Shown in pieces: positions 62,380 through 63,516 of a stretch of 64,000 nucleotides of DNA. Location of the stretch: contig CM120645.1 of NCBI GenBank assembly GCA_051362555.1, positions 1,116,001-1,180,000 of the forward strand, read 5' to 3'. The position numbers and the translations under genes were made by a program. The first letter of the stretch is position 1; each line of letters starts with the position of its first letter. The notes under the pieces are model-generated. The model had not been told where the DNA came from. It saw only the letters and a program-made list of their open reading frames with translations, and searched no databases. This DNA is from Lingula anatina (taxonomy: Eukaryota > Animalia > Brachiopoda).

Positions 62380-62654
62380 GAAGGATGCCAAGGCTACGGT
62401 CCTACCCACCAATGCCCTACAGGAGCTGGGGTCAAGGTCAACACAGATCCTGAACCAGATCCAGCATTTCTTTGCCTACCATATGGTGGATGTGTACGGC
62501 TGTGACTACTCTTCCAGTGGTATTGCCAGTGAGGCGCTGCAGTCGAAATTAAAGGCATTTTTTGACCGTCGTATGTCGGATGGGCCAAGATACGACACGT
62601 ACATTGTGTATTATAGCGGTCATGTACAAGAGAATGGGGATTGGGCTCTTGCAG
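62380..62654 (+). CDS. TMEM168: TMEM168 coding exon 2 (275 bp)
   Basis: Translates KDAKATVLPTNALQELGSRSTQILNQIQHFFAYHMVDVYGCDYSSSG...DGPRYDTYIVYYSGHVQENGDWALA. AG at 62378-62379, GT at 62655; phases 2 and 1 are consistent. Confidence 0.95.
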
Positions 62655-62956
62655 GTATTTGAAGTATATGTGTTCATAGTTAAAGGTACTTAGTGTAAGC
62701 TTTTCCCTTGAAAAACACATATTACTTTAGAATTTTTCCTGGTGGGAACAGTATTTTCTCTGACCAACCATCCTTTGATGATGCTTTCTGCCCACATGCC
62801 ATATTTCTGTAAGATTCCAGTAAAATTAAGAAGTCCTCACCCATGCTTAATAGCTTAATGTCTACTCCACTTCACAGCCTCACCCTCAACTTCAGAGAAG
62901 TTAATAACAAATTATTGAGCTTGGATCGTGACGAGTTTTCAAAATTCTCTCCACAG

Positions 62957-63516
62957 GAGATGGCACACTGAAATACGAAGACCTTCTCGAGTGGTGGAGA
63001 GAGAAAAATGCTGACTCTGATTCCCGTCTCATCCTCGTCTTGGACACGGAACATTCCTACAAGTGGGCCAAACCAGTTCACAAAACCAGGGACGCTTTTA
63101 TAGCTCTTCAGGCAACGAAGATTGGAAAATACACAGACCCTGAAGAGGGCGCCACAATCAAATTGGGTGACTTCACCAAGGAGTGGGTGGAGTATAACAA
63201 CGTCAGTCTAAGCGGGGACAGCGATATCAACTGGAAGGATTCAAGTCGCGTCATTAAGGCTGTCTATTCCACTTCTCGGTGCTGGACTGACTTTACCTTC
63301 CATCTGCCGACCGAGGACGAGATCGCGCAGCACTGGCAGAGCAACTTCCCCAAGTTTACGCGTCCTCTGATCAAAGCTACTCACTTCTGCCCCAGTGTCA
63401 GCAACCTATGCTTTTGCTGTGACTGTGTTGTGAGGTGTATGAGGAGAAAAAAGATGGCTTGGTTTCCGCCATCTGAGTTGGATACTGGGCATGGGTTTAA
63501 ATTGGTCAGGTCTTAG
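62957..63516 (+). CDS. TMEM168: TMEM168 terminal coding exon; full CDS 2136 nt, 711 aa
   Basis: Acceptor ctctccacag. Translates DGTLKYEDLLEWWREKN...LGDFTKEWVEYN...WTDFTFHLPT...LDTGHGFKLVRS*, matching the vertebrate end LDTGQGFKLVKS. Confidence 0.95.

Follow-up and report, generated by a model that had tools for sequence, protein, structure and literature searches.

TMEM168 of Lingula anatina ends in a predicted caspase-family domain that has very probably lost its protease activity

The stretch of DNA analysed here (the window; 64,000 nucleotides of Lingula anatina contig CM120645.1) ends with a TMEM168 gene on the + strand, the product of which is a brachiopod protein of 711 aa. The same window holds a single-exon F-box/LRR gene (39020-40318, +), which we take to resemble FBXL14, and a Wnt exon (7472-7939, -); the linkage of Wnt5 with FBXL14 is an old microsynteny. 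The features of the TMEM168 gene are as follows.

60591..61891, + strand: coding exon 1, for residues 1-433 and 2 further bases; holds the membrane domain and the caspase-fold domain's first strand
60708..61832, + strand: predicted 12-helix membrane domain, about residues 40-414; AlphaFold2 helices, pLDDT mostly >85
61842..63498, + strand: caspase-hemoglobinase (clan CD) fold domain in the predicted model, residues 418-706, spread across three exons
61892..62379, + strand: intron between exons 1 and 2, GT..AG, phase 2, containing a GA repeat
62380..62654, + strand: coding exon 2, residues 434-526; from helix 1 through strand 2 and helix 2 to strand 3, which has the His site
62618..62623, + strand: Gly514-His515, the catalytic-His position, aligned with the SGHG of active relatives
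62655..62956, + strand: intron between the His and Glu exons, 302 nt, GT..AG, phase 1
62957..63516, + strand: coding exon 3, residues 526-711 plus stop; Cys-site strand and the remaining domain
63025..63027, + strand: Arg549, at the start of the Cys-site strand, kept in 252/258 sequences; the same Arg is present in GSU0716
63043..63051, + strand: Asp555-Thr-Glu557, a D-x-C motif without its Cys; register from HHalign and profile alignments
63166..63177, + strand: G-D-F-T motif, residues 596-599, shared with metacaspase-like relatives that are active, in their G-x-F-T helix
63391..63459, + strand: Cys-rich basic stretch, residues 671-693, a helix in the model

Translation of the three exons differs from P0001, the TMEM168-A record of Lingula anatina (711 aa), at three residues in all, two in exon 1, none in exon 2 and one in exon 3. 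Exon 1 is covered by RNA reads at a depth mostly of 29-76 in runs X1 and X2, exon 3 is likewise transcribed, and loose read ends at 60502 point to an upstream spliced exon. The first intron has splice sites consistent with P0001 and a read depth of 0-4 inside it, and no joint is recorded for it because reads break off at the repeat. All four RNA runs, which were chosen by species label, have reads over the exons, and the joint across the second intron is spanned by 141, 3, 2 and 119 reads in them. Exon 3 opens on a tandem acceptor, CAG GAG (62954-62959), and only its first AG appears among the read joints; the alternative AG at 62958-59, which would give a spacing of 41, is absent from the joints listed. 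The codons of His515 (CAT, 62621-62623) and Glu557 (GAA, 63049-63051) are thus separated by 42 residues, and the positions, splicing and spacing that a preliminary description of the locus had given for this pair agree with the codons and with all four runs. Downstream, a short repeat in the 3' UTR (63543-63580) carries many reads with back-jumps and loose ends, suggesting a repeated or length-variable element.

That the C-terminus of this protein resembles a clan CD protease domain was the central proposal of the preliminary description, and it is borne out by Foldseek and VIA-align comparisons of AlphaFold2 models (Z 14-15) and by profile homology. The full model, built on an alignment of 65 out of 110 orthologues, has a mean pLDDT of 86.3 and shows membrane helices first and an alpha/beta domain behind them; a second model, of a 313-aa gibbon isoform, has a pLDDT of 83.3. 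Predicted short isoforms of this kind (~313 aa, P0115 cluster), comprising the last membrane helix and the caspase-fold domain, occur in many mammals. With Foldseek, all 37 rows listed for the full model are caspases (best E 3.8e-4), and all 41 listed for the gibbon isoform are caspases or MALT1 (best E 6e-6). VIA-align superposes residues 417-705 of the full model on caspase-6 with a Z of 14.9 (185 residues, rmsd 3.4), and the full model on yeast Yca1 with a Z of 14.6 (192 residues, rmsd 3.5). Among 48,161 PDB representatives Yca1 ranks first for the full model, and the top 27 rows for the gibbon model are all clan CD folds, its Z scores being 14.0 for Dronc, 13.9 for Yca1, 13.1 for c-FLIP, 12.5 for legumain, 12.3 for MALT1, 12.2 for PIGK, 12.1 for GSU0716, 11.5 for Raptor and 11.1 for SAVED-CHAT; the first clearly unrelated fold follows at 7.4, and two unclassified proteins score 9.0 and 8.2. 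The best viral structural match is a putative metacaspase, and a structure search of the ESM Atlas returned TMEM168 clusters without a common Pfam family, with C14 and C13 neighbours below the naming bar. Structure scores fail to tell caspases from metacaspases, since animal caspases (C14A) and MALT1 tie with the metacaspases (caspase-6 14.9, Dronc 14.0-14.1, MALT1 12.3-12.4).

In the model, strands at 421-428, 471-477, 507-514, 549-554, 573-581 and 625-631 alternate with helices, and the His site follows strand 3 and the Cys site strand 4, as clan CD requires (predicted models; Z 14-15, 185-199 residues). The likeness is remote (4-14% identity, rmsd 3.3-4.9, from predicted models). Judged from these models, the C-terminal ~290 residues almost certainly form a caspase-family fold. 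The domain had initially been placed at 62591..63120; it is real there and yet larger, since it runs from residue 418 to residue 706 (61842-63498). In rotifer-type orthologues (P0213, P0217, P0218, P0222 and P0228; P0218 is from Brachionus) the loops of the domain are enlarged by long insertions, low-complexity and acidic, with the core strands intact.

Direct sequence searches did not place the domain. A Pfam scan of the three exons gave no clan CD family above cut-off, P0001 has no Pfam match, and none of the 65 aligned orthologues exceeds a clan CD cut-off: Peptidase_C14 (PF00656) is touched by one member (E 0.11), the best members reach 13.4-13.7 bits against a cut-off of 21.4, and PF01650 is matched by none of the 65 at E up to 1. 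PDB sequences gave no match at E up to 10, either with exon 3 as the query or with two TMEM168 profiles. This absence of a direct match, along with identities of 4-14%, could be taken to mean that the likeness is convergent and that the domain has a Rossmann-like alpha/beta architecture without kinship to clan CD. We consider this the least credible of all the alternatives, given the gap between Z 13-15 for clan CD and 7.4 for the first clearly unrelated fold, and given a chain of sequence matches in which TMEM168 is linked at E 5e-13 with proteins that pass the Peptidase_C14 cut-off, and these in turn with GSU0716 and Arabidopsis metacaspase 4 (E 8e-7). Convergence is refuted unless these intermediate proteins are misassigned.

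The chain was obtained by searching 1.84 billion representative proteins with a 58-row profile of the C-terminal domain; this gave 326 matches at E up to 0.001 (the best 150 of the 326 are listed). P0319, P0321 and P0322 match it with E 5e-13 to 1e-12, are not TMEM168 themselves and carry intact G-H-G and D-x-C-x-S-G-x-W motifs. P0319 and P0322 score 38.9 and 34.6 bits with PF00656 (cut-off 21.4), and P0321 passes PF01650. HHalign, with P0319 and P0322 as templates picked for likeness to TMEM168, pairs His515 with the catalytic His and Glu557 with the catalytic Cys (prob 99.3 and 99.2), the same assignment that the preliminary description had made. Together with P0325 and P0341, and extended by nine metagenome loci (L003-L011), these proteins make up a bridge family with an intact dyad and the pattern G-H-G-x3-4-G-x-W ... 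D-x-C-x-S-G-x-W. At E up to 10 the bridge-family profile matches 27 sequences of the PDB; GSU0716 (E 1.2e-10), Arabidopsis metacaspase 4 (E 7.9e-7), plant legumains, Yca1, TbMCA2 and PIGK are among them, and animal caspases and MALT1 are not. On the strength of these profiles the TMEM168 domain is homologous to intact metacaspase-like C14 proteins, the bridge family is its closest active relative by sequence, and we infer a metacaspase-like ancestry.

SH3/Tudor-like repeats stand at the N-terminus of some bridge-family members, one member comes from EukProt as a gene model, and L007 seems to have introns. A hydrophobic helix is absent from the nine bridge ORFs of the metagenome loci, several of them partial, and P0319, on a contig of 954 bases, is possibly cut. 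A search with P0322 gave a single further cluster, and pattern scans of viral contigs and prokaryote genomes gave no confirmed relative of the family; similar uncharacterised proteins of the bridge type are reportedly found in sponge genomes. Eighty prokaryotic caspase-family proteins, gathered with a cyanobacterial plasmid protein that is itself a weak match of P0319, align weakly with TMEM168 in the same register in HHalign (probability 30%, 61 columns, P 5.4e-4), with a score of 34.4, where 20 column shuffles score 11.6-25.1 and the membrane part 16.8; HHalign in global mode failed. On a Paenarthrobacter plasmid (L001:1894-3256) a TIR-domain gene immediately precedes a caspase-family gene, with a second TIR gene nearby, in what resembles a defence locus. 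In a quick tree of 41 core sequences a branch (SH-aLRT 99) separates the 21 TMEM168 rows from the others; having long branches and no animal caspases, it cannot discriminate between a metacaspase and a caspase origin.

The residues that make a clan CD protease an enzyme are not those that TMEM168 keeps. Conservation was read from 363 sequences of the family (22 bridge-family rows excluded; the set is redundant and vertebrate-rich), with gap-free coverage of 258 at the Cys site and 272 at the His site. Position 557 holds Glu in 104/258, Asp in 73/258, one of 14 other residue types besides Cys, Glu and Asp in the remainder, and Cys in none, within a search that covers the best 150 of 326 profile matches, down to 63 bits; the homologues retaining Cys for which the preliminary description had suggested looking are thus absent from these 258. 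Its statement that Cys is replaced by Glu is correct for this species and for the mammals seen and does not extend to the family, in which E, D, S, L, Q, N and T are among the residues at 557. At the other site Gly514 is invariant, while residue 515 is His in 170/272, Pro in 61/272 and Asp in 27/272, and the Gly that follows the catalytic His, invariant in the bridge family, is found in 0/272. Named orthologues without the His come from annelids, molluscs, echinoderms, flatworms, nematodes, tunicates and some fish, yet it is kept in most vertebrate rows (92/110 in a vertebrate-rich set), which neutrality fails to explain.

It is possible in principle that an enzyme has been rebuilt around His515 and Glu557, as the preliminary description offered, since both residues lie at dyad positions in the Lingula and mammalian rows and His occurs with Glu in 60/184 rows and with Asp in 55/184; the closeness of the two in space is implied by register only. 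The pair fails to hold across orthologues, being found in 5/30 representatives at 50% identity, with Pro in place of His in 61/272 and 17 residue types at 557, so that this reading is largely refuted and we give it very little credence. We give equally little to the idea that some vertebrates regained cysteine-protease activity with a Cys one place earlier (D-C-E/D) and the retained His. His515 and Cys556 do occur together in 77/184 rows, but this count is swollen by fish rows, many of them nearly the same, D-x-C has its small residue at position 556 (A or S in active relatives), where gibbon has Ser and Xenopus Thr, and the Gly after the His is absent in 272/272. A spacing of 42 separates the dyad residues of caspase-3 (H121/C163) and of PIGK (H164/C206), and had been offered as a mark of clan CD. 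It does not serve as one, since the spacing is 43 in P0319 and 56 in a Candida glabrata metacaspase (His182/Cys238, in the available text of PMC9622860).

What TMEM168 does keep is the scaffold, in residues of the core and on the pocket side. Asp555 is present in 258/258 and Trp562 in 255/258, Gly520 and Gln577 are also kept, and the G, F and T of the G-D-F-T motif reach a weighted conservation of 0.96-0.99. The motif at the Cys site is D-[TCSA]-x-[NH]-S and departs from the Q-A-C-x-G of animal caspases; its Asp555 supplies an acidic residue two places before the Cys site, the specificity-pocket position, where animal caspases have Gln. The equivalent Gln161 of caspase-3 is a specificity-pocket residue, and this position is acidic in metacaspases, as described in the accessible part of PMC5756287. 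The invariance of Asp555 may be structural in origin. Mean weighted identity over 88 rows is 0.51 in the caspase-fold domain and 0.43 in the membrane part, which indicates that the domain is maintained, and a conserved scaffold from which the chemistry has been removed is the signature of a pseudo-enzyme. By these sequence patterns the domain is very probably without protease activity, in line with the pseudo-caspase reading of the preliminary description. Named members come from acoels, flatworms, rotifers, nematodes, molluscs, annelids, nemerteans, echinoderms, hemichordates, tunicates and vertebrates; a search that was not exhaustive turned up no named member outside the animals.

The tethering to the membrane that had been proposed for the domain is supported by the predicted 12-helix part that precedes it. 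Mean Lys+Arg counts are 2.6, 4.2 and 5.8 in the loops 149-164, 252-274 and 326-361 against 0.3-1.4 in the intervening loops (the bounds of the 12 helices were taken from the model and set by hand), and this alternation predicts that both termini, and with them the caspase-fold domain, lie on the cytosolic side. Of 81 full-length rows, 24 at most share any one N-glycosylation site. The same number of full-length members have a mean of 4 Cys within residues 668-695, where the helix 671-693 is likely a second membrane contact and might be acylated.

It is possible that the dead domain acts within its own molecule, as a cap or small-ligand sensor controlling transport or channel activity in the 12 helices, without binding another protein; this is the chief alternative to the reading preferred below. 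Such an arrangement would suit the polar and charged residues conserved within the membrane or next to it (R202, W315, H319 and R360) and the basic loop 326-361, which lies on the side of the domain and of which residues 344-358 are drawn into many structural alignments. Human R350, equivalent to R360 here, is reported as a recurrent tumour mutation and adjoins a helix (PMC11575792, in the part consulted). The membrane part, however, has no specific known fold: the whole-protein model matches generic four-helix bundles (Z up to 9.1; TTYH1 7.5) and no transporter or channel above that level, and Pfam matches to Tweety are weak, confined to 6 of 65 members (best E 0.006) and far from the cut-off. 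We hold a cap or sensor to be unlikely, and prefer to regard TMEM168 as a membrane protein with a catalytically dead caspase fold that likely serves as a non-cutting, cytosolic protein-binding module, a reading to which we assign a probability of about 0.65.

Metacaspases and metacaspase-like or orthocaspase proteases (MEROPS C14B, PF00656; Yca1, Arabidopsis MC4, Geobacter GSU0716) have the single-chain caspase-hemoglobinase fold in common with TMEM168, share its Y-S-G-H, R-(x5)-D and G-x-F-T motifs and are its nearest active sequence relatives here, whereas TMEM168 lacks the catalytic Cys and the post-His Gly, varies at the His and is fused to a polytopic membrane domain. GPI8/PIGK and legumain (C13) have a similar fold (Z 12.0-13.0), PIGK is membrane-bound too, and bridge proteins match PF01650 weakly. 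C13 enzymes are active and lumenal or lysosomal, and PIGK is single-pass, unlike TMEM168, the domain of which is predicted to be cytosolic, follows 12 helices, is dead and has neither the His-Cys dyad nor a PF01650 match. c-FLIP(L) is, like TMEM168, a caspase fold with a lost dyad (Z 13.1); it is a paralogue of caspase-8 and regulates an active partner, whereas no active TMEM168 paralogue with the membrane domain was found. Bacterial pseudo-orthocaspases likewise keep the caspase fold and have lost the dyad (PMC6426788, available passages), and TMEM168, as modelled, shows what defines clan CD pseudo-peptidases: the fold is kept, the dyad lost and the core conserved.

The caspase-like domain at the N-terminus of Raptor/KOG1 is a further clan CD fold (Z 11.5-11.8), and it is described as inactive, as mediating substrate binding and as kept in animals (PMC6325617, in the text seen). 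Raptor is unlike TMEM168 in being soluble, in the HEAT and WD40 repeats that follow its domain and in having a known ligand; we found no sequence link between the two, and Raptor binds its motif next to the old active site and not within it, which counts against the reading preferred here. iRhoms offer an analogy of function only: a dead, polytopic protease that controls the traffic of membrane clients, of unrelated fold, in which the dead protease is the membrane domain itself.

In our reading an active metacaspase-like enzyme probably became joined to the membrane domain and lost its catalysis before the split of the sampled bilaterian lineages. The membrane domain would keep TMEM168 in the secretory pathway, where the dead domain would take hold of membrane proteins of the Golgi, ER or nuclear envelope, its partners or clients, by their cytosolic segments, and such binding would alter the traffic or turnover of clients, much as the dead caspase domain of Raptor recruits substrates. 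Reports on localisation, on Nav1.5 and from hu.MAP3.0, together with the precedent of Raptor, lead us to infer this adaptor role, which by analogy seems somewhat better than an even bet. We take the hu.MAP3.0 entries Q8TBP5 and Q9NPA1 to be FAM174A and KCNMB3. Partners of polytopic proteins in affinity purification are often non-specific, which weighs against an adaptor. In the portions of the sources available to us, TMEM168 is Golgi-localised and co-immunoprecipitates with osteopontin (PMC5638853), is annotated to the nuclear membrane (PMC11575792) and, in its Brugada-linked form, goes with reduced Nav1.5 expression (PMC8835759, PMC12292546, both reviews). The supplements of PMC12222714, likewise seen in part, pair Q9H0V1 with Q8TBP5 (0.999) and Q9NPA1 (0.983) in hu.MAP3.0 and cluster it with Q14500/KCNJ12. 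Osteopontin is secreted, so no encounter with a cytosolic domain is expected, and this counts against the adaptor role.

Arg549 corresponds to Arg539 in the 697-aa mammalian numbering (checked on echidna and gibbon records), which we take to be the residue changed in the Brugada variant R539Q; our literature search found no paper that names R539Q together with TMEM168. A more specific scenario, and one that we think rather doubtful, is that TMEM168 is an animal relic of the metacaspase lineage and an iRhom-like adaptor, the Asp555 pocket of which would read Arg/Lys motifs in the cytosolic tails of Nav1.5 and Kir2.2 and control their exit from the ER and Golgi, with the Brugada-linked Arg539 change destabilising the pocket strand.

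Searches of titles and the beginnings of abstracts found no paper that links TMEM168 to the caspase fold, and the passages on TMEM168 seen in a 2026 review (PMC13766674) come without a structure. TMEM168 is absent from the text and six supplements of the ECOD human-proteome paper, from the text and four supplements of PMC13478489 and from the AFTM supplement. AlphaFold-based domain catalogues (TED/CATH, ECOD, InterPro) may already carry this label, and dead clan CD domains are already known from Raptor, c-FLIP and pseudo-orthocaspases; a dead metacaspase-like domain behind 12 membrane helices was not met elsewhere in the searches made. Human TMEM168 has no Pfam domain, and published work connects it with Brugada syndrome, glioblastoma and responses to methamphetamine. 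Assigning 40% of the protein to a dead clan CD protease opens it to experiments at the level of residues, such as changes to the pocket Asp and Arg539, deletion of the domain and peptide screens, and adds an unlisted pseudo-protease to the clan CD set of animals. TMEM168 is found in animals, where a review, in the passages available, calls metacaspases absent (PMC5756287). If bridge-type proteins do occur in sponges as is said, active metacaspase-like enzymes may exist in early animals. TMEM168, with its probable metacaspase-like ancestry, qualifies the view that animals have no metacaspase-type domains.
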